This document shows positions 2 through 19,820 of a stretch of 19,820 nt of DNA, piece after piece. The stretch covers positions 1-19,820 of the forward strand of contig JAYEOX010000035.1 of assembly GCA_034723415.1 (NCBI GenBank), given 5' to 3'. Source of the DNA: Fidelibacterota bacterium. GTDB lineage: Bacteria > Fidelibacterota > Fidelibacteria > Fidelibacterales > Fidelibacteraceae. Below the pieces are notes generated by a model. That model was given only the letters and a program-made list of their open reading frames with translations, searched no databases and was not told where the DNA came from. Position 1 is the stretch's first letter. Every line of letters starts with the position of its first letter. The position numbers were made by a program, and so were the translations under genes.

Positions 2-931
2 AAGATAATTGGAGAAAGGTATAAGAATGCAACTGTAAATTATTTGACTAAAAGTAAATTTCGGTCTCTTGTAGAATTCCATCCGACTGTCAGTAATATA
101 ATAAATCTTGAAGAGCATTCTTCATTAACTCAATTGAGAAATTCAATTAAAAAGTCAGAATATGATCTAATTATTGATCTTCATAATTCTATGAGAAGTA
201 AATTAATTACTTTTGGTTTGAAAAATGTAAAAAGATATAAAAAACATAAAATTCAGCGATATTTTTTAACAAAATTCAAAATACGAATTGGTGAATTTCT
301 CCATGTTACACAAAAATATTTAGAAGCGATCAATGTAAAAGAGAAGATTAATTCATTTAAAATATTTTTACCGCCGGATGAAAAAATCAGAGATAATTTA
401 AGAGATAAATTCCAGCAATTGAAAAAGAGTAAATCTATTTTGGGAATTTCAGTTGGTGCATCGAAGCCATCAAAAATGTTTCCAATCCATAAATTAATTG
501 ATATAATAAATTCTGTCGGTTCAAATTTTGATGAAATTGTATTTTTGGGAAATGGTGAATTGGAAAATGAATTAACAAAAACCATCGCAGATAGGATCAA
601 TTTTAAATCCATAAATTTATGTTCCCAACTTACAATTTCAGAATTGATGTTATTCGTAAATGAATTGACAGTTTTTATTGGGAATGATTCGGGGATTGCT
701 CACATTTCAGCCGGAACCGGAGTAAATACAATTGCATTTTTTGGTCAAACAGTTCCGGAATATGGATTTACACCAATCGGAAATGTTGAAATTATTGAAC
801 CGGAAGAAGAATTATCCTGTCGCCCATGTGGACATCTTGGACATGACAAGTGCCCCAAAAAACACCACTATTGTATGGAAACAATGTCATCAGAAAAAAT
901 TGTAAATAAAATTAAGAAGTTTAATTTATGA
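2..931 (+). CDS. Glycosyltransferase family 9 (LPS heptosyltransferase, WaaF-like), 5'-truncated by the window edge
   Basis: The frame is open from base 2 (KIIGERYKNATVNYLTK...), so the TTG at 44 is internal. GT9 motifs YDLIIDLH, FIGNDSGIAHIS and AFFGQT...GFTP are present, with the C-terminal CRPC-x6-C-x6-C cluster. It lies directly upstream of waaA. Confidence 0.88.
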   Translation, partial: KIIGERYKNATVNYLTKSKFRSLVEFHPTVSNIINLEEHSSLTQLRNSIKKSEYDLIIDLHNSMRSKLITFGLKNVKRYKKHKIQRYFLTKFKIRIGEFLHVTQKYLEAINVKEKINSFKIFLPPDEKIRDNLRDKFQQLKKSKSILGISVGASKPSKMFPIHKLIDIINSVGSNFDEIVFLGNGELENELTKTIADRINFKSINLCSQLTISELMLFVNELTVFIGNDSGIAHISAGTGVNTIAFFGQTVPEYGFTPIGNVEIIEPEEELSCRPCGHLGHDKCPKKHHYCMETMSSEKIVNKIKKFNL

Positions 932-2358
932 GTAAAAGTATCTCTCGCACATTTCGGCTACGCTCAATGCACAAAGATATTAAGTCGCAAAGAAATATAA
1001 AGAATGGTTCTCGCAAAGTCGCAAAGTCGCAAAGAAATATAAAAAATGATTCTCACCAAGTCGCAAAATCGCAAAGAATTAAGAATAACACATTTTGGGT
1101 TATATTTTATAATATTTTAGTAATATTAATTTATCCGATAATTATTTTAGTAAGTTTTTTTAATTCCAAAATTAGAGCAGGAGTGAGGGGAAGAAAAATA
1201 ACTCTTAAGAAATTGACAAATTGGAGAAAAAATATTGATGACAAAGATTCAATAATTATGGTAAATTGCTCATCACTCGGAGAATATGAACAGGCGAAAC
1301 CTGTAATTGAAAAAATAAAAGCAGAAAATCCTAAGATCAAAATAGCTCTCTCATTTTTTTCACCAAGCGGATATGAGAATTTCAAGTATAATAATTTAGT
1401 TGATATAGTATATTATTTACCTTTTGATCTCTATTGGAAAATGTCAAAGTTAATTAATATAATGAATCCTATAGCAATAATAGACACAAGCTATGATATT
1501 TGGCCAAATTTACTCTTTAATGCTAATAAGAAGGGAATTACACACTATTTAATTTCGGCACGATTAAAAGAGAATACTTCAAAATTGAAACCAATATTTA
1601 GAAACTTTTTCAGGGTTTTATTTAGTTATTATAAAAGAATATTTACTGTTTCCAAGAATGATTATGAATTGTTCGGTTCACTATTAAGATCTTTATCAAG
1701 AGTAACAAATATTGGCGACACTCGTTTTGATAATGTAGAAAAAAGATACCAGAAATATAAAGATACAGAACTTTTACCGACTCACTGGAAAAATGAACAG
1801 GTCTTTATTTTTGGTTCAACACATAGTGAAGATTATGATAAAATAATGCCGGCGATCAAATTATTACAAAATAAATATAAAAATTTACATTTCGTTGTTG
1901 CTCCACACGATCCTGAAGAAAATATTTATTTGATGTTCAAAGAAGAATTGAGTAGTTTGGAGAAATTGTCTAAAATATCAAGTGAATCAGAAGTAAAAAA
2001 TATTTATGTGGATACAATTGGCGATCTGGCGAAATTGTATTTTTCATCTGATTTTGCTTATGTCGGTGGTGGTTTTGGAAACGATGGACTGCATAATGTA
2101 ATGGAACCGGCTGTTTGCGGAATTCCAATTTTTATCGGTCCAAACAATTCCAATTCTATTGAGGCGTCAGAATTGATCAAAAAAGGAGTGATTTTTGAAT
2201 TTAATTCGTCAGCACAATTAGTAAATATAGTTAATTCATTAATAAACAATTCTGATAATTATAAAAACATTTCCAAAAAGGCGAGAGAATATATAATTCG
2301 ATCGGTTGGTGCATCAGAAAAAATAATAGAATATTTGAGAAATGATAAAATTATCTAA
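928..2358 (+). CDS. waaA: 3-deoxy-D-manno-octulosonic acid (Kdo) transferase with a repeat-derived N-terminal extension
   Basis: Motifs CSSLGE, SFFSPSG, YLPFD, IWPN, GDTRFD, GSTH, DTIGDL, YVGGGF and HNVMEPA...GP are present, plus an N-terminal TM anchor (FWVIFYNILVILIYPIIILVSFF). The start overlaps the upstream stop (ATGA). An alternative ATG lies at 967. Confidence 0.93.
   Translation: MSKSISRTFRLRSMHKDIKSQRNIKNGSRKVAKSQRNIKNDSHQVAKSQRIKNNTFWVIFYNILVILIYPIIILVSFFNSKIRAGVRGRKITLKKLTNWRKNIDDKDSIIMVNCSSLGEYEQAKPVIEKIKAENPKIKIALSFFSPSGYENFKYNNLVDIVYYLPFDLYWKMSKLINIMNPIAIIDTSYDIWPNLLFNANKKGITHYLISARLKENTSKLKPIFRNFFRVLFSYYKRIFTVSKNDYELFGSLLRSLSRVTNIGDTRFDNVEKRYQKYKDTELLPTHWKNEQVFIFGSTHSEDYDKIMPAIKLLQNKYKNLHFVVAPHDPEENIYLMFKEELSSLEKLSKISSESEVKNIYVDTIGDLAKLYFSSDFAYVGGGFGNDGLHNVMEPAVCGIPIFIGPNNSNSIEASELIKKGVIFEFNSSAQLVNIVNSLINNSDNYKNISKKAREYIIRSVGASEKIIEYLRNDKII
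947..972 (-). repeat. Small REP-like hairpin element flanked by a GCAC direct repeat
   Basis: The + strand reads gcac-atttcggctacgctcaat-gcac. The - strand CATT-GA-GC-GTA-GCC-GA-AATG can form a CATT/AATG stem with tandem G.A mismatches and a GNA triloop. It is a GC-rich patch in AT-rich context. Confidence 0.45.
982..1078 (+). repeat. 42-bp tandem repeat (about 2.3 copies) built from 8-nt GTCGCAAA units, inside the waaA 5' end
   Basis: 982-1023 aagtcgcaaagaaatataaagaatggttctcgcaaagtcgca; 1024-1065 aagtcgcaaagaaatataaaaaatgattctcaccaagtcgca; 1066-1078 aaatcgcaaagaa. It encodes KSQRNIKNGSRKVA / KSQRNIKNDSHQVA / KSQR. Confidence 0.92.
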
Positions 2359-3055
2359 TATAAAAGTGTCGAGAAAATATTTTGAACTGAATATTGAAAA
2401 ATTCTCAATTGAAGATGGTAAAAGCATATTACTTCTTGGGAGCTCAGGATGTGGCAAAACGACTTTATTAAAATTATTAGCCGGATTTGTTGAGAAATAT
2501 GAAGGGAATGTTCATTTTGAAGATGTGGCTCAAACTAGCCCCATAATGTTACAAAATCCTATTGATCAGATGATAACTCCGACAGTGGAAACAGAACTAA
2601 AATTTCCATTAGTGAATGAAAATATAGAAGATGAAAAAATTGAAGAAAAGGTCAAAGATATTGCAAATTATTTTGGAATTGAAAAATTATTTAAAAGTAA
2701 TTTAAGAGAATTATCGTTTGGCGAGCTGCAAAAAGTAATGTTAGCAGCAACTTTTTTAGTGAATGCAAATTATTATTTTTTAGATGAACCAACAAGTCAT
2801 TTGGATTTTAAATCGATAAAAATATTATATAATTATATTGATAAAATTGTAAATGAAGGGAAAACTGTAATAATTGCAAGTCAAAATTTTGATGAATATT
2901 CTTTTACAGATAAAACGATAATAATGAATGATGGAAAGATAGTTGAATATATGGACAGTTGCAATATTGATGATAATAAAGACAAGATTAGTGAATATGG
3001 ATTAAGGTCTGCAGATAATGGAATTGTTAAAATAATGTTAGAGGATAAAACATAA
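2342..3055 (+). CDS. ABC ATPase, energy-coupling-factor (EcfA/CbiO-like) type
   Basis: Walker A GSSGCGKT; EcfA-like Q-loop MLQNPIDQMITPTVETEL; signature LSFGELQK; Walker B YFLDEPT; the switch position reads IASQ. Confidence 0.8.
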   Translation: MIKLSNIKVSRKYFELNIEKFSIEDGKSILLLGSSGCGKTTLLKLLAGFVEKYEGNVHFEDVAQTSPIMLQNPIDQMITPTVETELKFPLVNENIEDEKIEEKVKDIANYFGIEKLFKSNLRELSFGELQKVMLAATFLVNANYYFLDEPTSHLDFKSIKILYNYIDKIVNEGKTVIIASQNFDEYSFTDKTIIMNDGKIVEYMDSCNIDDNKDKISEYGLRSADNGIVKIMLEDKT

Positions 3056-3298: not shown

Positions 3299-4036
3299 AT
3301 GAAAATATTACCATTCAAATACGAAATAAATAAAAATAAAACATTCATAAATGAAAAGATCATTGATATTTCACCGTATTCTTGTATTGGAATTATTGGT
3401 AAAATCGGCAGTGGGAAAAGTACATTGATAAAATTATTTGTAGATTATGAATTGCAAAATGTAGGTGCTTATGATAATTATAATTTTTCTGCATACCTAT
3501 CACAAGATCTAACTCGTTTATTTGTTGGCAATACACTTGAAACGATAATAAATCTATATGAGAATAAGAGTCATGAAATTGGAAAACATTTTGATAAAGA
3601 ATTATTTTTAAAATATATTGATAAATTAGAATTAAAAATAGATGATAAGTATAATAGACGATTAATTGATTTTTCTGTGGGAGAGGCGCAGCGAATTGCG
3701 ATTGCGTTAACTTCCGCAACGGTTTCGAAAATAGTTGTTTTTGATGAACCGACAACTGCACTAAACAATCATTATTTAAATATTTTTTATTCTATAGTTG
3801 ATGAAATTAAAAAGAGATCAAAAGTATTTATAATCTCGCATAATTTTTTAGATATTATAAAAACCAGTGAATATATTTTATTTATTGATGAGTTACAGAT
3901 AAAAGATGACTTTTTTATTGAACAAATTATTGCAAAAGACAAAATAATGAGTTATTTTTCGTTCTATGAAAAATATAAAATGAAAATGAAAGGAACTGAA
4001 AAAAGTGGTAAAAAAAATAACAAAACAGAGCATTAA
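3299..4036 (+). CDS. ABC ATPase, divergent second ECF-type (EcfA'-like) subunit
   Basis: Walker A GKIGSGKS; Q-loop YLSQDLTRLFVGNT; signature FSVGEAQRIAIA; Walker B VVFDEPT; H-switch IISHN. Confidence 0.72.
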   Translation: MKILPFKYEINKNKTFINEKIIDISPYSCIGIIGKIGSGKSTLIKLFVDYELQNVGAYDNYNFSAYLSQDLTRLFVGNTLETIINLYENKSHEIGKHFDKELFLKYIDKLELKIDDKYNRRLIDFSVGEAQRIAIALTSATVSKIVVFDEPTTALNNHYLNIFYSIVDEIKKRSKVFIISHNFLDIIKTSEYILFIDELQIKDDFFIEQIIAKDKIMSYFSFYEKYKMKMKGTEKSGKKNNKTEH

Positions 4037-5582
4037 AAAAAGAAGAGACATAATAAAAGGGAAATTAGATCCCAAAAAAGTTGATTCGCACATATTTTTT
4101 ACTTTGGCAAATATTATCAGTTTGATCAGAGCATTTCTGACATTACCGATTGTCTATTATTTTTATCAAGACAATATAAAAGTGGCAGTAATATTACTGA
4201 GTATAGCAGTAATAACTGATTGGTTAGATGGTTATGCTGCCAGACACGCTGAATCTGTAACAACTTACGGAAAAGCGTTGGATCCGTTGGCTGATAAATT
4301 AGTAGGAATGGGTGTTTTGGCGATTATGGTAGTTAAAATGGATTTCCCAATTTGGTTTATTGGAACTTTGGCAGTTAGAGATTTTTCGATAATTATTTTA
4401 GCAATGATCTTACATAATTCAAGGGGAATTGTTAAAGGAGCGAATATCTTAGGAAAAATATTCCTATTTGTAAGTACAGTTATGGGATTCGCTTGGATCT
4501 ATAATTATGTTAAACCATTTCCATATCCATATCACATTTATTTACTTTTTACAGCAACCGGTATGATGTTAATTAGTTGGATATATTATTTTGTTGAATT
4601 GATTAACTTGATAAGAAAATTACCTTATCAGCCGGTAATTGAGCGAGAAAAAATAGATAAAAAAGATAAAGGAATAGAGAATAAATTTTATTCCGGATTG
4701 AAAAAAACAAGAGATAAATTTAAGAATGGTTTGTTTTCACTCTTTGGAGACGGTTTAAAAATTGACAATAAATTTTTAGATGAAATTGAAGCATTTTTGT
4801 ATCAATCCGATATCGGAGCGAATATTACAGAAAAGTTGTTAGATGATATAAAAACAGCATCAAAAAAAGATAAAATAAATGATTTTAAAGATATTAAAAC
4901 AATCTTTTATGATAAATTTAGCGAATTATTTAAAGAAGATGATATTAAAGTAAATATTGAAAAGAACAAACCTTTTGTAATTCTCGTAACCGGTGTAAAT
5001 GGTTCCGGCAAGACGACTTCAATTGGAAAGTTAGCGAATTATTATTCACAAAAAGGGAAGAAGGTATTGATAGTTGCAGGTGATACATATAGAGCTGCAG
5101 CCGTTGAACAATTAGATGAATGGGCAAAAAGATCAAAAGTTGATATTATAAAAAATTTGGAAGCCAATAATCCTTCAGGAATTATTTTTGATGGAATAAG
5201 TGCCGGTATTTCAAGGAAATCAGATGTTATTATTGTTGATACTGCAGGGCGATTACATAATAAAAAACATCTTATGGAAGAATTGATAAAGATTGAACGA
5301 GTGATAAAAAAGGTAATTCCTGATGCTCCACACGAGTCGTTGCTTGTAATTGATGGAACGATTGGACAAAATAGTTTAATTCAAGCAAAAGAGTTTATGA
5401 ACAGTATCCCAATAACCGGATTAATTATGACGAAATTAGATGGTACCGCTAAGGGAGGAATTTTAATAGCAATTAAAGATGAATTAAATATTCCGGTAAA
5501 ATTTATTGGGCTTGGTGAAAAGATTGAAGATCTGCTTCCATTTTCTTCCGAATATTATATTGAATCGCTGTTTGGAAAATAA
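4005..5582 (+). CDS. ftsY: Fusion protein: N-terminal CDP-alcohol phosphatidyltransferase (PgsA-like) plus C-terminal signal recognition particle receptor FtsY (NG domain)
   Basis: Residues about 30-200 carry TLANIISLIR, the CDP-alcohol phosphotransferase signature DWLDGYAAR...TTYGKALDPLADK, VRD, GANILGK and several TM helices. Residues 228-525 carry FYSGLKKTR, GVNGSGKTT, DTYRAAA, DTAGR, TKLDGTAKGG and GLGE. The reading frame is continuous. The GTG start has AGGA upstream. Confidence 0.93.
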   Translation: MVKKITKQSIKKRRDIIKGKLDPKKVDSHIFFTLANIISLIRAFLTLPIVYYFYQDNIKVAVILLSIAVITDWLDGYAARHAESVTTYGKALDPLADKLVGMGVLAIMVVKMDFPIWFIGTLAVRDFSIIILAMILHNSRGIVKGANILGKIFLFVSTVMGFAWIYNYVKPFPYPYHIYLLFTATGMMLISWIYYFVELINLIRKLPYQPVIEREKIDKKDKGIENKFYSGLKKTRDKFKNGLFSLFGDGLKIDNKFLDEIEAFLYQSDIGANITEKLLDDIKTASKKDKINDFKDIKTIFYDKFSELFKEDDIKVNIEKNKPFVILVTGVNGSGKTTSIGKLANYYSQKGKKVLIVAGDTYRAAAVEQLDEWAKRSKVDIIKNLEANNPSGIIFDGISAGISRKSDVIIVDTAGRLHNKKHLMEELIKIERVIKKVIPDAPHESLLVIDGTIGQNSLIQAKEFMNSIPITGLIMTKLDGTAKGGILIAIKDELNIPVKFIGLGEKIEDLLPFSSEYYIESLFGK

Positions 5583-5700
5583 TAACCACTAAATACACAA
5601 AGATGGCACAACGAACACAAAGAATAATTATTAATGTAGAAAGTGGATAAAAAAATGTAACTTGGAGATCTTTGTAAAAATTTAATGAATGTTGTGATAA
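5583..5700. repeat. Degenerate 40-bp inverted repeat pair built from 9-nt-period CACAAAG-type units
   Basis: The left arm 5583-5622 is taaccactaaatacacaaagatggcacaacgaacacaaag. The reverse complement of the right arm 5661-5700 is ttatcacaacattcattaaatttttacaaagatctccaag. They match at 24/40 positions without gaps, with a 38-bp spacer. Confidence 0.6.
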
Positions 5701-5713
5701 AAGAATTCAAAAT

Positions 5714-7012
5714 ATGAGAAAAATAAATATAATTAATTTAGGGTGTTCAAAAAATTTAGTTGATAGTGAAATTGTCAAAGGCGGATTGATAGACAACGAT
5801 TTTCAATATGTGAATGATATAGAAAAAGCTGAAATAGTAATTGTTAATACTTGTGGATTTATACTTTCGGCAAGAGAAGAATCAATCGATACGATTTTGG
5901 AAATTGTTAAAATGAAACAGGAAAATAAACTGAAAAAAGTAATTGTAATGGGTTGTTTGTCAGATAGGTTTGAACAGGAATTGAGTAAGGAAATTCCGGA
6001 AGTTGACAAATATTTTGGTGCAAATCAAATGTCTGAAGTAATAAATTATTTATCTTCAGATAATAAAAAATACGATCCAATTTATAACAGAAGTTTAATG
6101 ACGAAACCACATTATGCGTTTTTGAAAATATCTGAAGGTTGTAGTAATAATTGTTCTTTTTGTTCGATTCCGATAATGCGAGGAAAACAAATAAGTCGTC
6201 CACTTAATGAAATTATTGAAGAGGCAAACTATTTAGTCGAGAAAAAGCACATTAAAGAGCTGATAGTAATTGCACAAGATACAACTACTTATGGCTATGA
6301 CTTAAATGAAAATATTAGATTATTTGATGTATTAAAAGAGTTAGATAAGATCTCAAAAGTAAAATGGATACGACTTCATTATACTCATCCTGATCATTTT
6401 GATGAGAGAATAATTGAGCTGATTTCAAAAGCAAAACGGATTATTCCTTATATTGATATACCTTTTCAACATGTAAATGAAGAGATCTTAAGAAAGATGA
6501 ATCGCAGAGGAAATGCTAATAAATTTACAAAATTGGTAAATAAATTAAGAAATAGAATACCAAAACTTATTTTACGAACAACATTTATTGTAGGATTCCC
6601 GGGTGAGACAAAAGGACAATTTTCAGAATTATATAATTTTATAAATGATGTTAAATTTGAGAGATTGGGAGTTTTTAAATATAGCGAAGAACAAGATACA
6701 GCAGCAGAAAAATTTGAAGACGATATCTCGGAAAAGATCAAAGAAGAAAGGTTAAATAAAATAATGAAATTGCAACAGAAAATTTCGTTAGAATTGAATA
6801 AAAAATTAGTTGGAACAACACAAAATGTTTTAATTGATGAATATGATGAAAATTCAAAAGTCGCTTATGGTAGAACATATATGGATTCACCGGAAATTGA
6901 TAATTCAGTTATTATCGAAGAAAAATTAAACGAAGGTAAATTCTATAAAATAAAAATAAATGATTATATGGAATATGATCTGTTCGGTGAAAAGATTCTA
7001 AAAATTAAATAA
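5714..7012 (+). CDS. rimO: Ribosomal protein S12 methylthiotransferase RimO
   Basis: LGCSKNLVDSE, VNTCGFI...EESI and GCL (N-terminal cysteines); radical SAM motif CSNNCSFC; LRTTFIVGFPGET; GRT...SPEID TRAM domain. Confidence 0.96.
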   Translation: MRKINIINLGCSKNLVDSEIVKGGLIDNDFQYVNDIEKAEIVIVNTCGFILSAREESIDTILEIVKMKQENKLKKVIVMGCLSDRFEQELSKEIPEVDKYFGANQMSEVINYLSSDNKKYDPIYNRSLMTKPHYAFLKISEGCSNNCSFCSIPIMRGKQISRPLNEIIEEANYLVEKKHIKELIVIAQDTTTYGYDLNENIRLFDVLKELDKISKVKWIRLHYTHPDHFDERIIELISKAKRIIPYIDIPFQHVNEEILRKMNRRGNANKFTKLVNKLRNRIPKLILRTTFIVGFPGETKGQFSELYNFINDVKFERLGVFKYSEEQDTAAEKFEDDISEKIKEERLNKIMKLQQKISLELNKKLVGTTQNVLIDEYDENSKVAYGRTYMDSPEIDNSVIIEEKLNEGKFYKIKINDYMEYDLFGEKILKIK

Positions 7013-11066: not shown

Positions 11067-12500
11067 ATGTGCGGAATTATTGGAATTAATGATAAGCAGA
11101 ATGTTACTTCAGAAATTATTCATGGATTAACTGCTTTACAGCATCGTGGTCAGGATTCAGCAGGTATAGTTACTTTTGATGGGAATTTTAAAATAAAGAA
11201 AGGTGCCGGTCAAGTCAGTTCTGTTTTCCAAAATGTAGATCTAAATAAAATGCAAGGTAATTGTGGGCTTGGTCATGTTCGTTATGCTACAGTTGGTTCG
11301 ACGGAAGAAATTGATGCTCAGCCATTTGCAGTAAATTATCCATTTGGTTTAGCTATGGTTCACAATGGTAATGTTATAAATTTCAATTCACTTCGAAAAG
11401 AGTTAAATGAAGAGCACAAAAGATTAATTGATACTTCAAATGATGTTGAATTGATTCTATACACTTTTGCTGCAAATTTAGAAAAAAAGGACTTGAAAAA
11501 TATTTCTGTTGAAAATATTTTTGATACTGTTGAAGCAGTTCAAAGATCTGTTAAAGGCGCATATTCAGTTTTGACTATTATTGCTAATCAGGGTTTTTTA
11601 GCTTTTACAGATCCCTATGGAATTAGACCGCTTATCATGGCAAAAAAACATACTAAAAATGGCGTAACTTACGCTTTTGCTTCAGAAACAAGTGTTTTTG
11701 ATTATCTTGGATATGAAGTGATAAGAGATCTGGAAGCTGGTGAAGCGGTGTTTATTGATAATGATAATAAAATTCATTCGCGTATATTGAAACAAATAAA
11801 ACCGGCGTTTTGTGTTTTTGAATATATTTATTTTGCTCGTGAAGATTCTATTTTTCATAATCGTTTAGTAGCATCAGAAAGAGTTAAAATGGGGAAAATG
11901 TTAGCGAAGAATTTGAAAAAAAGTGGGATAAAACCTGATATAATTATTGATGTTCCAAATTCTGCGTATTTTTTTGCTTCAGGTTTAGCGGAGAAAGCCG
12001 GTATTCCCTATAGACGTGGATTAGCAAAAAATAATTTTATTGGCAGAAGTTTTATTACACCTAATCAAAAGAAGAGAGAAAGTGTTGTAAAGCAGAAATT
12101 AAATCCTATAAAAGATATTATTAAAAGCCATAAAATAGCAGTTGTAGATGATTCCATTGTTAGAGGAACTACTTCTCGACATTTAGTAAATCTATTAAAA
12201 AAATATGGAGCAAAAGAGGTATATTTTATTTCGGCTTCTCCACCAATAAAATTTCCTTGTATTTATGGAATAGATATGTCTGTAAAAAAAGAGATGATAG
12301 CAGCAACAAAAAATAAGAAGCAAATAGCAGAATCTATAAATGCAGATGAAGTAATTTATCAATCATTGGAAGATTTGCAAGAGATGTATTCGGATCTTCC
12401 GATTTGTGATGCATGCTTTTCAGGAAATTATCCAACTGGAATAACAAAAGATTTATTAGAGCAAATTGAAGCAGAAAAATTAAAATCCGATCGTGTATAG
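11067..12500 (+). CDS. purF: Amidophosphoribosyltransferase
   Basis: N-terminal MCGIIG nucleophile, LQHRGQDSAG, GHVRYAT, HNGN, CVFEYIYFAR, PRPP site VVDDSIVRGTTS, YGIDM and CDACF. RBS AAGGA upstream. Confidence 0.97.
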   Translation: MCGIIGINDKQNVTSEIIHGLTALQHRGQDSAGIVTFDGNFKIKKGAGQVSSVFQNVDLNKMQGNCGLGHVRYATVGSTEEIDAQPFAVNYPFGLAMVHNGNVINFNSLRKELNEEHKRLIDTSNDVELILYTFAANLEKKDLKNISVENIFDTVEAVQRSVKGAYSVLTIIANQGFLAFTDPYGIRPLIMAKKHTKNGVTYAFASETSVFDYLGYEVIRDLEAGEAVFIDNDNKIHSRILKQIKPAFCVFEYIYFAREDSIFHNRLVASERVKMGKMLAKNLKKSGIKPDIIIDVPNSAYFFASGLAEKAGIPYRRGLAKNNFIGRSFITPNQKKRESVVKQKLNPIKDIIKSHKIAVVDDSIVRGTTSRHLVNLLKKYGAKEVYFISASPPIKFPCIYGIDMSVKKEMIAATKNKKQIAESINADEVIYQSLEDLQEMYSDLPICDACFSGNYPTGITKDLLEQIEAEKLKSDRV

Positions 12501-12504
12501 AGAG

Positions 12505-14009
<1,505 letters not shown>

Positions 14010-14021
14010 TTAAAAATAAAC

Positions 14022-15575
14022 ATGAATAATGAATTAGATAAAATATTAATATTGGATTTTGGTTCACAATACACGCAACTCATTGCTCGTAGAATTCGAG
14101 AAATGAATGTTTACTGTGAAATTCACGCTTACAATTTTTCAATTGATGAAATATTAAGATTTTCACCTAAAGGAATAATTTTATCCGGCAGTCCTTTTAG
14201 TGTTTTAAGTGAAAATGCACCAATTATGGATGAAAAAATATTTGATATGAATATCCCAATATTAGGAATATGTTATGGGTTGCAATTAATAGCTAAACAT
14301 TTTAATGGCAAAGTTGAGAAAACTACTAAAAAAGAATATGGGAAAGCGAAACTAATACTTAAACAAGAAAATGAATTGTTTAAGCATGTTTTTGAAGAGC
14401 ATAATTTTATCAATGTGTGGATGAGTCACGGTGACAAAGTTCTCGCACTGCCAGCTAATTTTGAAGTTATTGCAAAGACATCAAATTCTCCAATTGCAGT
14501 TATTAAACATCAAAACAAGTCAATTTATGCACTTCAATTTCATCCGGAAGTAATGCACACGGAAGATAATAATAAAATATTGAATAATTTTGTGATGAGT
14601 ATCTGTAAAGTAAATGCAAATTGGACAGCAAAGAATTTCATTAATAAAGAATTAAGTACAATTCAGAAGATGGTTGGAGGTAAACAAGTTATTTGTGGTC
14701 TATCAGGTGGAGTTGATTCTTCTGTTGTTGCATTATTACTTCACAGGGCAATAGGAAATAATTTAACTTGTATATTTGTTAATACCGGATTGCTACGGTT
14801 AAATGAAGCGGAAGAAGTAAGAAAAGTATTTAAAGAGAATTATAAGATAAATTTGATCTATGTTAATGCGAAAAAAAGATTTTTAAACGCTTTAAAAGGA
14901 GTGGTAAATCCTGAAGTAAAAAGAAAAATAATCGGGAAATTATTTATTGAAATATTTGAAGAAGAGGGAAAGAAAATCGGCGATATTAATTTTCTCGCAC
15001 AAGGAACTTTGTATCCCGATGTTATCGAATCAATTTCATTCAAAGGTCCCTCTGCGACAATAAAATCTCATCACAATGTTGGTGGTTTGCCTGAAAAAAT
15101 GAATTTAAAATTAATTGAACCGTTGCGTGAATTATTTAAAGATGAAGTTCGTGAAGTTGGTAAAGAATTGGGCTTGATAGATAAAATATTATATCGACAT
15201 CCGTTTCCTGGTCCGGGTTTAGCAATTAGAATTATTGGAAAAGTAACAGAAAAGATGTGTGATATGTTGCGAAAAGCAGACAACATTGCTATGACAGAAT
15301 TCAGGAATAATAATCTTTATGATAAAATATGGCAAGCATTTTGTGTACTGTTACCTGTAAAAACCGTGGGAGTTATGGGAGATGAAAGATCTTATGAGAA
15401 TGTTATTGCATTAAGAGCAGTTACAAGTACTGATGGAATGACAGCTGATTGGTCAAAAATCCCTTATAATATTTTGGGAATAATTTCCAACCGAATAATT
15501 AATGAAGTTGAAGGAATAAATAGAGTTGTTTATGATATAAGTTCAAAACCACCAGCTACAATAGAATGGGAATGA
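14022..15575 (+). CDS. guaA: GMP synthase (glutamine-hydrolysing)
   Basis: [57 protein letters not shown] and KPPATIEWE. Confidence 0.98.
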
Positions 15576-15619
15576 AGAATTAAGAATTAAGAATTAAGAA
15601 TGAGAGAATGAATAATGAA
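15570..15619 (+). repeat. Heptamer tandem repeat GAAT(T/G)AA overlapping the guaA stop
   Basis: gaatgaa gaattaa gaattaa gaattaa gaatgag a gaatgaa taatgaa. Confidence 0.9.
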
Positions 15620-15666
15620 AAACTACGAAATAGTTGGATGTTGAGAGAAAATAGAAACTTAGAGAT

Positions 15667-15687
15667 AATTACGAATTACGAATTATG
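15667..15687 (+). repeat. Heptamer tandem repeat AATTACG overlapping the tilS start
   Basis: aattacg aattacg aattATG; a related unit (aactacg) lies at 15621-15627. Confidence 0.85.
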
Positions 15688-17079
15688 AAAAAGAAATGGT
15701 CAAAATTAGCACAGAAAGTTCATCAGAATATAATTTTGAACAATTTATTATTTAAAGGTAAAAAAATATTAATTGCTTTTTCCGGTGGACGAGATTCTAT
15801 TGTTTTATTTAACATTTTATTAGAATTAAAGCCAACTTGGAAATGGAAATTTATTTTAGGACATATTAATCATAGTTTAAGAGTTGATGAAGATGAGAAA
15901 GAAACAAATTTCTGTAGAAATATCGCCCAAAAATATAATATTAAGTTGTTAGAAAAAAAAATTGATGTCAAGGAATATGCAAGGGAAAATAGTATTTCAA
16001 TAGAAGATGCAGCAAGAAAACTGCGTTATGATGTGTTTGATAAATGGATGAATAATAATTCAATCGATTTTTTGGTTACCGGTCACCATCAGAGCGATCA
16101 AGCAGAGACAATAATGTACCGTCTTTTAACTGGTTCCGGATTTAATGGATTAAGTGGAATACCTAATAAGCGTGGGAAAATAATCAGACCGATTTTGGAT
16201 GTTACGAGAGAAGAGATTAATGATTATATTAAGGAAAATAAATTAGATTTTATGGAAGATAGTTCAAATAGTGACAGTAATTTTCAGCGTAATCGGATTA
16301 GAAATAAAATTATTCCCTTTATTCAGAAAAATGGTTTTAAGCAAATAGAATCAAATTTAGCGAAGAGTGGTTCATCAATTGTATCTGCAAAAATTGCAAT
16401 AAATTATTTTATTGACAAGGAATTTGACGATTTAATTAGTAATAAAAATGGAAATTATAAATTCAAAATAAGTGAGATTGAGAGGTTACCAAGTTTTGCA
16501 ATTGATGAAATATTTAAATTGATATTTAAAAAATTACTAAATATCGAAAAACATATATCTCAAAAGGAAATATTACAGTTAAAATATTTTATTTTTAAAT
16601 CTGAAACGGGAAGTATTTATAAAGTTGAGAATAATTATCAGTTTATTATTAATAGAGGCAATATTTTAATTTCGAAAAGTGTAGAAGATTATAATAATAA
16701 ATTAGATATAAATGGGAAACCAATCAAAATAAATGATATAGGGACTATTAATATTAAAAAGGTGAAAAAAATTAAAAGGGAAAAAGATTTAAATTTAAAT
16801 TGTGAATATTTTAATGTAGATATTGCAGATAATAATTTGTATATTACAAATTGGCAAAATGGTGACAGAATGGTACCATTTGGAATGAAAAAGAGTAAAA
16901 AGGTGAGTGATATTTTGACAAATGCAAAGATAGATGTTAATAAAAGAATAAAATATCCTGTAATTTTTGCAGACAATGAAATAGTTTGGATTCCGGGAGT
17001 TAAAAGGGCAGAGAAATTTAGAATTAATAATTTCAACGATTTTGCATATGAGATTATTTTTAAGCAAGATAGTAAATAA
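15685..17079 (+). CDS. tilS: tRNA(Ile)-lysidine synthetase
   Basis: AFSGGRDS PP-loop, HINHSLR, AARKLRY, TGHHQSDQAET, IIRPIL, EDSSN and RNRIR, plus the TilS C-terminal domain (WQNGDRM.PFGM..SKKVSD). Confidence 0.95.
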   Translation: MKKKWSKLAQKVHQNIILNNLLFKGKKILIAFSGGRDSIVLFNILLELKPTWKWKFILGHINHSLRVDEDEKETNFCRNIAQKYNIKLLEKKIDVKEYARENSISIEDAARKLRYDVFDKWMNNNSIDFLVTGHHQSDQAETIMYRLLTGSGFNGLSGIPNKRGKIIRPILDVTREEINDYIKENKLDFMEDSSNSDSNFQRNRIRNKIIPFIQKNGFKQIESNLAKSGSSIVSAKIAINYFIDKEFDDLISNKNGNYKFKISEIERLPSFAIDEIFKLIFKKLLNIEKHISQKEILQLKYFIFKSETGSIYKVENNYQFIINRGNILISKSVEDYNNKLDINGKPIKINDIGTINIKKVKKIKREKDLNLNCEYFNVDIADNNLYITNWQNGDRMVPFGMKKSKKVSDILTNAKIDVNKRIKYPVIFADNEIVWIPGVKRAEKFRINNFNDFAYEIIFKQDSK

Positions 17080-17085
17080 ATATAA

Positions 17086-17703
17086 GTGTTAAATAAACCA
17101 ATAAGTGTAATGAAAGAAAAACAATTTATAGTATTTGATTCAGAAAAAAAGAGTAAAATTCCATTCAAATTATATATTAAAGAAAAAACAATTCAGAAAA
17201 GAATTAATGAAATAGGTAAAGTAATTTCAAAGGATTTTAAAAATAATAAATTGCCACCTATTTTAATAGGCGTATTAAATGGATGTCTATTTTTTATGTC
17301 AGATTTAATGAAAGCGACAACAATAGAAATGGAAATGGATTTTATTAAGGTATCATCATATCGTGGTACTTCATCAACCGGTAATGTACGATTAATAAAA
17401 GATATTAGTGCTCAAATAGTGAATAGAGATATTATTATAGTAGAAGATATAATTGATACGGGATTAACAATTAATTTTTTACGAAAACATTTTAATAGTA
17501 ATTCTCCAGCATCAATAAGTATTATTACATTGCTTTATAAAAAAGAAATAAGTGAGATGGAAATTGAACCAAATTATTATGGATTTATTATTCCGAATAA
17601 ATTTGTAATTGGTTATGGATTAGATTATAAACAAAAATATCGTAGATTAAGAGATATTTATGTAATAGATGAGGAATATAAAAAAGACAATAATATAAAA
17701 TAA
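17086..17703 (+). CDS. hpt: Hypoxanthine phosphoribosyltransferase
   Basis: LIGVLNG, VSSY, IVEDIIDTGLT and FVIGYGLDY, in the tilS-hpt-ftsH context. The start is uncertain (GTG 17086 or ATG 17110). Confidence 0.93.
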   Translation: MLNKPISVMKEKQFIVFDSEKKSKIPFKLYIKEKTIQKRINEIGKVISKDFKNNKLPPILIGVLNGCLFFMSDLMKATTIEMEMDFIKVSSYRGTSSTGNVRLIKDISAQIVNRDIIIVEDIIDTGLTINFLRKHFNSNSPASISIITLLYKKEISEMEIEPNYYGFIIPNKFVIGYGLDYKQKYRRLRDIYVIDEEYKKDNNIK

Positions 17704-17717
17704 GTAACAGGTATTAA

Positions 17718-19820
<2,103 letters not shown>

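Follow-up and report, generated by a model that had tools for sequence, protein, structure and literature searches.

A PgsA-like lipid synthase domain fused in frame to the SRP receptor FtsY in Marinimicrobia

We observed that a Marinimicrobia genome encodes a CDP-alcohol phosphatidyltransferase domain and the SRP receptor FtsY within one open reading frame. The product is probably an SRP receptor fixed in the membrane for good by what would be a still-active PgsA-like lipid synthase with a non-canonical acceptor pocket. One polypeptide would then act both as the cell's only SRP receptor and as a membrane lipid head-group transferase. How FtsY locates the membrane and is activated there is a long-studied question. 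Membrane activation of E. coli FtsY needs two lipid-binding helices and anionic lipids, and to our knowledge a permanent anchor replacing the first helix has previously been shown by engineered fusions alone. Evolution appears to have repeated this anchor-replacement experiment at least two times, with the same lipid head-group enzyme each time, which offers a natural system for asking if local lipid synthesis and SRP targeting are coupled to each other.

Domain organization of the fused gene

The window, by which we mean the whole 19,820-nucleotide stretch of DNA that was analysed, carries the fusion gene on the plus strand at 4005..5582 (525 aa; ORF, Pfam and NCBIfam). An earlier note on this DNA had described a single in-frame ORF joining an intact CDP-alcohol phosphotransferase signature to a complete FtsY NG domain, and Pfam, NCBIfam and the translation confirmed this description. 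The ORF initiates at a GTG (4005), and the orthologues of genomes G002 and G003 have an ATG at the same place. Directly upstream, also on the plus strand and in a synteny conserved in the family, lie two genes for ABC-type ATPases (2342-3055 and 3299-4036), the second of which overlaps the start of the fusion by 32 nt. The conserved downstream neighbour is a rimO-like radical-SAM methylthiotransferase gene on the same strand (5714..7012).

The encoded protein begins with a K/R-rich basic N-terminus (residues 1-31; 4005..4097) that contains an amphipathic helix at residues 7-20 of the AF2 model. The CDP-alcohol phosphatidyltransferase domain with its six predicted TM helices follows (residues 32-205; 4098..4619), delimited by PF01066, AF2 and the hydropathy profile; PF01066 (CDP-OH_P_transf) itself matches residues 32-183 with an E-value of 3e-28 and 99.6 bits, against a Pfam gathering score of 22. 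Within this domain, the catalytic signature D72-x2-D-G-x2-A-R-x8-G-x3-D-x3-D97 (4218..4295) was read from the translation and falls in invariant alignment columns, and an altered acceptor-pocket stretch was located at residues 133-154 (4401..4466) by alignment to S. aureus PgsA. A flexible linker (residues 206-218; 4620..4658), recognized by its low pLDDT and by the junction alignment, leads into the alphaN1 amphipathic helix of FtsY (residues 219-231, ...NKFYSGLKKTRDKF...; 4659..4697), which is retained according to AF2 and the junction alignment. The rest of the protein consists of the helical bundle of the FtsY N domain (4698..4970; Pfam SRP54_N at 241-304, E 3e-11, and AF2 helices) and the FtsY G domain, or GTPase (4971..5573; Pfam SRP54 at 323-523, E 3.9e-75, TIGR00064 and sequence motifs). 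All these features lie on the plus strand. The motif FYSGLKKTR starts at residue 228 (nt 4686) and the acidic A-domain is absent, both as claimed in the earlier note.

The AF2 model of the fusion protein has a mean pLDDT of 84.1. It contains six TM helices, at residues 34-54, 58-82, 87-112, 116-140, 148-169 and 176-205 (pLDDT mostly 80-97), then the linker with a pLDDT below 50, the alphaN1 helix and the NG domain. The relative placement of the enzyme half and the NG half is undefined in this model because its pTM is 0.57. Translation, AF2 and hydropathy agree that the TM segments precede a complete NG domain within one polypeptide; AF2 and hydropathy thereby support the earlier proposal that the in-frame fusion creates an integral-membrane SRP receptor. 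The linker is predicted to be cytoplasmic on the basis of the six TM helices and the strongly basic N-terminus, and with this orientation both termini of the enzyme domain would lie in the cytoplasm.

The FtsY half and its membrane anchor

The NG part of the fusion scored 343.2 bits with the NCBIfam FtsY model TIGR00064 (cut-off 260.7) over residues 252-523, and the GTPase motifs GVNGSGKTT, DTAGRLH and TKLDG are present and occupy conserved alignment columns. The GL-x-KTR-x-x-F motif of alphaN1 aligns with unfused FtsY; this helix is described, in the available part of PMC5533587, as sensing anionic lipid and switching FtsY on. A search with PF00448 for a second ftsY matched only Ffh and the fusion in this genome, which is 94% complete, and the fusion is the sole FtsY found there. 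We propose that the six-helix enzyme domain, through its short flexible linker, would be a permanent membrane tether for the NG domain of FtsY. It would take the place of the basic N-terminal lipid-binding motif of unfused FtsY, with alphaN1 kept.

Such an arrangement has several known counterparts. Membrane-tethered NG supports growth according to the available portions of PMC5533587 and PMC2780400, both of which cite Zelazny 1997. The engineered TM-NG constructs, including the 3L-Pf3 construct of Lam et al. 2017 (PMC5533587), resemble the Marinimicrobia protein in that NG and alphaN1 sit on a TM anchor replacing the alphaA1/A-domain contact, as far as the accessible text describes them. The Marinimicrobia fusion differs in being natural and conserved, and in being anchored by FtsY's own operon partner, an enzyme with six TM helices whose active site is intact. 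A group of FtsY proteins with an N-terminal TM anchor (PMC2780400, seen in part, citing Maeda et al. 2008) likewise have a membrane-integral or firmly anchored receptor without SR-beta, but theirs is one short, non-enzymatic hydrophobic segment, whereas here it is a complete CDP-alcohol phosphatidyltransferase. In eukaryotes, an integral membrane protein likewise ties the receptor GTPase SR-alpha to the membrane (available parts of PMC5533587 and PMC2780400); this protein, SR-beta, is in contrast a separate one-TM GTPase subunit, has no covalent link to the receptor and is no lipid enzyme.

Distribution and origin of the fusion

A search for the combined architecture found CDP-alcohol transferase-FtsY fusions beyond the genus, including a second fused clade in the phylum (P0125). 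Of the 401 Marinimicrobia genomes sampled, at least 26 gave matches that span both halves free of stops; these belong to families f9, f14 and f20. Six of the 26 read as single ORFs, and three more run from the catalytic motif to the P-loop without meeting a stop. Roughly 8% of the Marinimicrobia genomes sampled have the fusion, which is not unique to the source genome. PF01066 and PF00448 occur together in 46 protein clusters in a search with P0125, and public data contain at least 52 clusters with the fusion. Their annotation needs correcting, because the fusion proteins are now named only "FtsY". One candidate third fusion, in G019 (apparent open frame of 572), was rejected when direct reading revealed stops between the two genes. 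In the NG tree, the clade of the source genus (support 100) is nested in a clade (support 100) with 15 unfused rows, and the other fused group lies elsewhere. The tree forces at least two changes and, on this phylogeny, the fusion arose at least twice in the phylum.

The majority of genomes in the phylum hold the enzyme and ftsY as separate genes, and the fusion is therefore dispensable for function. Loci were read in 27 unfused genomes, and in each of them ftsY is immediately preceded, on its own strand, by a PgsA-like ORF. For 21 of these pairs the two genes are anything from 11 nt overlapping to 76 nt apart; two others are separated by 151 and 212 nt, and the remaining four show overlaps inflated by longest-ORF starts. 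The PgsA-like enzyme is FtsY's constant operon partner throughout a whole abundant marine phylum. Among 150 listed matches, 48 run through both genes in a single frame that exactly one stop interrupts, and stop-then-ATG junctions between the PgsA-like gene and ftsY were read directly. The junction alignment further showed that the first half of the linker shares its origin with the C-terminal tail found in unfused copies of the enzyme, and that the basic N-terminal motif M-[AI]-[LF]-F-K-[KR]-K... of unfused FtsY is missing from the fusion of the source genus. These data show that the fusion came about by loss of the stop codon and a short spacer in a tightly coupled gene pair, and that in the source genus the N-terminal motif of FtsY was lost as well. 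The earlier interpretation as a Rosetta-stone case was borne out by the adjacency of the two genes throughout the phylum; the route that it proposed, by way of shared rimO neighbours, is unnecessary, as the source was the pre-existing pgsA-like/ftsY pair. Outside the phylum, ftsY was found beside none of the nearest homologues at the six Chlorobiota loci that were placed in a search with one protein (P0139). The earlier note knew of no described example, and we likewise found no published description; Villanueva et al. 2020 (PMC7852524) mentions neither FtsY, phosphatidyltransferase, PgsA nor Marinimicrobia. Fusion of a CDP-alcohol phosphatidyltransferase with FtsY appears to be undescribed.

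The ease with which such a pair can be joined raises the possibility, in our view an unlikely one but to be taken seriously, of a neutral operon collapse: coupled neighbours fuse readily, cells tolerate a tethered NG domain, and neither activity bears on the other. The many pairs separated in frame by a single stop, the stop-then-ATG junctions and the functionality of engineered TM-NG fusions (PMC5533587 and PMC2780400, in their available parts) are consistent with this, as is the fact that the fusion is recurrent yet remains the minority state. However, the pairing of this paralogue with ftsY, which spans many families and is present in all the unfused genomes examined, exceeds usual housekeeping synteny, and in two clades the fused state, under strong purifying selection, has outlasted the saturation of synonymous sites. 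A single fused ORF is found in all five genomes of the genus, at 77-100% identity. Across these, dS is 0.4 to more than 2, and dN/dS is 0.05-0.15 for the enzyme half, 0.05-0.11 for NG and 0.09-0.40 for the linker.

Identity of the lipid enzyme

We next consider the lipid synthase that would anchor the receptor. The single domain matched only one solved structure, S. aureus PgsA (PDB 7DRJ/7DRK; E 8.4e-9), which is also the best structure match of the subfamily profile (E 4.5e-22). A protein atlas search matched nothing but generic CDP-alcohol transferase clusters. The earlier note had taken the fused enzyme to be PgsA, which catalyses committed PG synthesis. If the domain were a genuine PGP synthase, FtsY would be tethered to the maker of its activating PG or cardiolipin, coupling lipid supply to co-translational insertion. 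Several observations agree with this: PgsA is the best NCBIfam as well as PDB match of the domain, the catalytic motif is complete, the gene pair is kept throughout the phylum, and both FtsY and SecYEG favour PG and cardiolipin (PMC5533587, in the part available). The scores do not. With TIGR00560 (PgsA), the fusion reaches 78.8 bits as a whole protein and 81.6 bits as the domain alone, below the cut-off of 109.1. The listed ftsY-linked copies in 41 relatives score 67-101 bits, none of them over the cut-off, and the stand-alone copies score 98-139 bits. Moreover, the check for a second pgsA turned up a canonical copy elsewhere in the genome, which scores 126.5 bits against the cut-off of 109.1 and adjoins pgpA.

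The acceptor pocket differs as well. The accessible part of Yang et al. 2021 (PMC8640168) describes a basic 3'-phosphate pocket in S. aureus PgsA formed by K83, R110, R118 and K137, together with T138 and Y181, and reports that R118, K137 and T138 touch the glycerol-3-phosphate head group. The fusion shares with this enzyme the six-TM CAP fold, the signature and the equivalents of K83, R110 and Y181, which are retained in 35/38, 38/38 and 38/38 ftsY-linked or fused copies, respectively. In sequence alignment to this one solved PgsA, A133, F153 and L154 of the fusion occupy the positions of R118, K137 and T138. All 38 ftsY-linked or fused copies carry other residues at these three positions, and all 21 canonical copies of the phylum keep the equivalents. 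Given the sub-cut-off score, the separate canonical pgsA and the altered pocket residues, the identification as PgsA was not supported, and we consider a genuine PGP synthase improbable. By the criterion set in the earlier note, this weakens the lipid-coupling interpretation only.

Judged by its sequence, the enzyme half belongs to a paralogous PgsA-like subfamily, distinct from housekeeping PgsA. This subfamily is uncharacterised and is defined here by diagnostic pocket changes, and its product would be worth determining. The intact metal/CDP motif together with the changed acceptor pocket suggests that the phosphatidyl group is probably passed to an alcohol other than glycerol-3-phosphate. 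An assignment as CAP-type cardiolipin synthase (NF053678 ClsA) found no support, with 58.5-59.5 bits against a cut-off of 240 and a higher score, 90.4, for the canonical PgsA of the same genome. The genome also encodes a PLD-type two-domain candidate cardiolipin synthase. A more speculative and rather doubtful extension is that the PgsA-like paralogue might be FtsY's dedicated membrane partner throughout the phylum, a counterpart of SR-beta that is at the same time a lipid synthase. It would use CDP-diacylglycerol and some acceptor, not glycerol-3-phosphate, to make an anionic lipid (for example, cardiolipin from PG); a pocket in which two positive charges are gone and small or hydrophobic side chains have come in would suit such an acceptor. 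The lipid would build a local patch activating FtsY and SecYEG, and the fusions would make an existing interaction covalent.

Integrity of the fused protein

A receptor permanently anchored by its lipid synthase would be expressed as a single polypeptide with both halves active. A look-up of sequencing runs containing 4300-5000 listed no RNA run. Alternatively, the fused ORF could give rise to two proteins, through internal initiation or through cleavage of the linker, which is disordered in the AF2 model and evolves faster than the domains. We regard this as very unlikely: the earlier note had seen no in-frame ATG ahead of the NG domain, and indeed neither ATG nor GTG occurs in frame between residues 189 and 275, the TTG and ATA codons of this interval are not preceded by a Shine-Dalgarno-like site at a usable distance, and the N-terminal motif with which free FtsY begins in relatives is deleted. 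It is also conceivable that the enzyme half has lost catalysis and serves only as an anchoring scaffold, since its acceptor pocket is unlike that of PgsA. All eight residues of the signature D-x2-DG-x2-AR-x8-G-x3-D-x3-D are nevertheless unchanged in 33/33 aligned ftsY-linked or fused copies, the domain is under the purifying selection given above, and the same subfamily is free-standing in most of the phylum, which makes loss of activity still harder to credit.

Finally, the fusion is real and not an artefact: an assembly or sequencing error that joined two genes has next to no likelihood, given that Logan contigs of four runs (from one study, which may be the source of this DNA) span 3900-5700 with 0 differences and 0 gaps, and that five species-level genomes and the protein clusters, drawn from several archives, share the architecture.

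The window encodes a PgsA-like domain and FtsY in one reading frame

The fused gene (4005-5582, forward strand) is a single ORF of 525 amino acids, in which Pfam places CDP-OH_P_transf at residues 32-183, SRP54_N at residues 241-304 and the SRP54 GTPase at residues 323-523. The protein scores 343.2 bits on the NCBIfam equivalog model for FtsY (cut-off 260.7), and the CAP signature D72-x2-DG-x2-AR-x8-G-x3-D-x3-D97 is intact. Pfam, NCBIfam and direct translation agree on the architecture described in the earlier note, and FYSGLKKTR begins at nt 4686, as given there. The ORF lacks an acidic A-domain, and its stretch from residue 189 to residue 275 contains neither an ATG nor a GTG codon in frame.

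As a check on assembly error, we compared positions 3900-5700 with Logan contigs of four runs from one study, possibly the source of this DNA, and observed 0 differences and 0 gaps, the junction being intact. The same single ORF is present in five of five species-level genomes of the genus (G000-G004) at 77-100% identity, and starts with ATG in two of them. In pairwise comparisons of these genomes, dN/dS lies at 0.05-0.15 in the enzyme half, 0.05-0.11 in the NG domain and 0.09-0.40 in the linker; such low values at a dS of 0.4 to >2 indicate that the fused gene is held under purifying selection across a long divergence. In a collection of 5.8 billion proteins, five clusters of fusions of the window's type were found (P0001-P0005), one of which has 29 members from several archives.

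The fused protein resembles a permanently anchored SRP receptor

An AlphaFold2 model of the fused protein (mean pLDDT 84.1, pTM 0.57; input alignment of 39 rows) contains an amphipathic helix (residues 7-20), six TM helices (residues 34-205), a linker with pLDDT below 50 (residues 206-218) and a helix (residues 219-231) followed by the NG fold. The active site of this enzyme family is cytoplasmic according to passages of PMC8640168. Taken together with the six TM helices and a very basic N-terminus, this would put the linker and the NG domain on the cytoplasmic side.

In E. coli, FtsY first contacts the membrane through its N-terminal alphaA1 motif, and alphaN1 then gives stable engagement and activation, with PG and cardiolipin preferred, as stated in passages of Lam et al. 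2017 (PMC5533587) and Mircheva et al. 2009 (PMC2780400). The same passages describe FtsY as still functional when alphaA1 is swapped for a TM helix or an unrelated membrane protein; works cited in these papers are Zelazny 1997, Bibi 2001 and Maeda 2008. Like those constructs, the window's protein keeps alphaN1 and the NG domain and carries a polytopic anchor in place of the N-terminal motif. We therefore read it as a putative SRP receptor that would be permanently anchored in the membrane, its anchor being a lipid head-group transferase predicted to be still active.

The fusion corresponds to a conserved gene pair

With the whole fused protein as query against 41 related genomes, the two halves match two neighbouring same-strand genes beyond the genus. 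Of 32 loci that we read in families f1-f3 and f5-f10 of the phylum, 5 are fused; in 27 of the 27 unfused ones the gene immediately ahead of ftsY is a PgsA-like ORF, which bears out the Rosetta-stone origin proposed earlier. In 21 of these 27 loci the two genes overlap by up to 11 nt or are up to 76 nt apart; wider gaps of 151 and 212 nt occur in two, and apparent overlaps of 38-301 nt in four are a product of longest-ORF start calls. That the pair recurs throughout the phylum speaks for a possible functional link between the two genes. Alignment across the junction showed that RKLPYQPVIERE, which opens the linker and makes up half of it, matches the end of the free enzyme (its C-terminal tail) in a sister family. 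The second half, KGIENKFYSGLKKTR, matches FtsY immediately ahead of alphaN1. The stop codon, the spacer and the basic N-terminus of FtsY (MALFKRKKK / MIFFKKK) are absent from the fusion.

The family order is ABC-ATPase, ABC-ATPase, PgsA-like gene, ftsY, rimO. Directly upstream of the fusion, the window carries ABC-type ATPase genes at 2342-3055 and 3299-4036 (both forward strand), the second overlapping the fusion start by 32 nt. No permease gene lies alongside this pair, which precedes the PgsA-like gene in sister genera too. Further upstream are LPS-core genes (2-2358, forward strand) for a heptosyltransferase-like GT9 protein and a 476-aa Kdo transferase; the downstream row is purF-guaB-guaA-tilS-hpt-ftsH (11067-19715, forward strand).

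A second fused clade, larger than the first, exists within the phylum

The enzyme half was searched exhaustively against 1.84 billion representatives. This search found another fused protein, P0125 (500 aa), which has the same three Pfam domains and an enzyme half only 34% identical to that of the window's protein. Using P0125 as query against 401 genomes drawn evenly from the phylum, we observed 26 stop-free matches spanning both halves, in families f9, f14 and f20, besides one partial match at a contig end and the five genomes of the window's genus. Six of the 26 were read directly as single ORFs of 492-496 aa, three more were confirmed by reading to run from the catalytic motif to the P-loop without a stop, and the remainder were counted from spanning matches alone. 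The same stretch was read directly without a stop in the genome G102, listed with one stop inside its match. A search of the protein collection with P0125 returned at least 46 clusters with PF01066 and PF00448, and one more of the window's type; named clusters are all labelled "signal recognition particle-docking protein FtsY" and come from Marinimicrobia/Neomarinimicrobiota.

In a 39-row NG tree made by a quick method, the genus clade (support 100) is nested in a wider clade, also of support 100, that takes in 15 unfused rows, and the f9 fused rows fall in a separate clade alongside unfused f9 and f6 rows. Given the starred branches, the fused or unfused state must have changed at least twice; the best tree needs three changes, a count that does not distinguish gain from loss.

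In many families of the phylum the two genes share a reading frame and a single stop, mostly TAA, stands between them: this is so for 48 of the 150 matches listed in the P0125 search, and 14 others have two to four stops in frame; these rows are close kin, dominated by f19, and the counts are not independent. The junctions read in relatives, including loci L053-L055, L026 and L012, are of a stop-then-ATG type ("...KEIS*MAFMGKIF"). Changing one nucleotide of such a stop would be enough to join the two genes; the one-stop arrangement could simply be inherited translational coupling. Two loci of one f9 genus (L057 and L058, genomes G063 and G118) encode a separate FtsY, in frame behind the TGA stop of the enzyme gene, with a longer N-terminal extension of ~45 residues before the alphaN1 region. 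The genome G019 was rejected as a further fusion: an open frame of 572 aa was reported for both halves, yet direct reading (L015, 1438-1452) revealed stops between the genes, and reported open-frame length on its own is unreliable for calling fusions.

At E <= 1e-60, the fused query gave no match in 37 f11 genomes (~1 Mb each) or 16 f25 genomes, whose FtsY is either far more divergent or otherwise arranged. Six Chlorobiota loci are the nearest homologues placed outside the phylum, and ftsY follows none of them. The earlier note knew of no described example, and we likewise found neither the fusion nor the gene pair described in the full-text literature available outside subscription journals.

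The enzyme half differs from the housekeeping PgsA

The window's genome (94% complete) has PF00448 matches at two loci. Since the other is Ffh, the fused gene is the sole FtsY found. PF01066 matches occur at four loci: the fused gene; a 196-aa protein that passes the PgsA model's cut-off of 109.1 with 126.5 bits and lies between RecR, upstream, and a PgpA-like gene and CinA, downstream; PssA (126 bits vs 107), which adjoins Psd; and a 301-aa protein whose type is not clear. The genome also has a two-domain PLD-type candidate cardiolipin synthase. The PgsA model gives the fused domain only 78.8-81.6 bits, and a curated model for CAP-type cardiolipin synthase gave no support for that identity (59 bits, cut-off 240).

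Across the 41 genomes, the PgsA model detects two PgsA-like genes per fairly complete genome. Stand-alone copies score 98-139 bits, with one over the cut-off in 23 of 41 genomes; ftsY-linked copies score 67-101 bits, and no listed one exceeds the cut-off. The model detected no stand-alone copy in G003 (86% complete). The signature residues are unaltered in 33 of 33 aligned ftsY-linked or fused copies.

In S. aureus PgsA, the 3'-phosphate of PGP contacts K83, R110, R118, K137 and Y181, and T138 bonds the 2'-hydroxyl (passages of Yang et al. 2021, PMC8640168). To locate the equivalent positions we used HMMER alignments to chain 7drj_A, taking the chain index as native + 20, an inferred offset that agrees for N5, R65 and K83. 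We then compared them in an alignment of 38 ftsY-linked or fused and 21 stand-alone copies, all from the phylum. All six are kept in 21 of 21 stand-alone copies. The ftsY-linked or fused copies keep R110 and Y181 (38/38 each) and K83 (35/38). At the R118 position they carry G/A/T/K/S (17/11/4/4/2) and at K137 F/S/A/M (21/13/3/1), a systematic loss of two positive charges from the acceptor pocket; T138 is replaced by I/V/L/M/A (28/5/3/1/1). We conclude that the ftsY-linked copies form a distinct PgsA-like subfamily, with an acceptor that is probably other than glycerol-3-phosphate. Of the earlier reading, the Rosetta-stone origin and the membrane-anchored receptor hold up, but the enzyme is not the housekeeping PgsA, given its low score, its pocket residues and the canonical copy, with a PgpA-like gene, elsewhere in the genome.

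Distant relatives of the enzyme half (P0124, P0126, P0131, P0159, P0183, P0233, P0199 and P0176) have other architectures, among them several proteins of 341-390 aa with two tandem CDP-OH_P_transf domains, one transglutaminase-like core fusion and one weak Vps62-like match.
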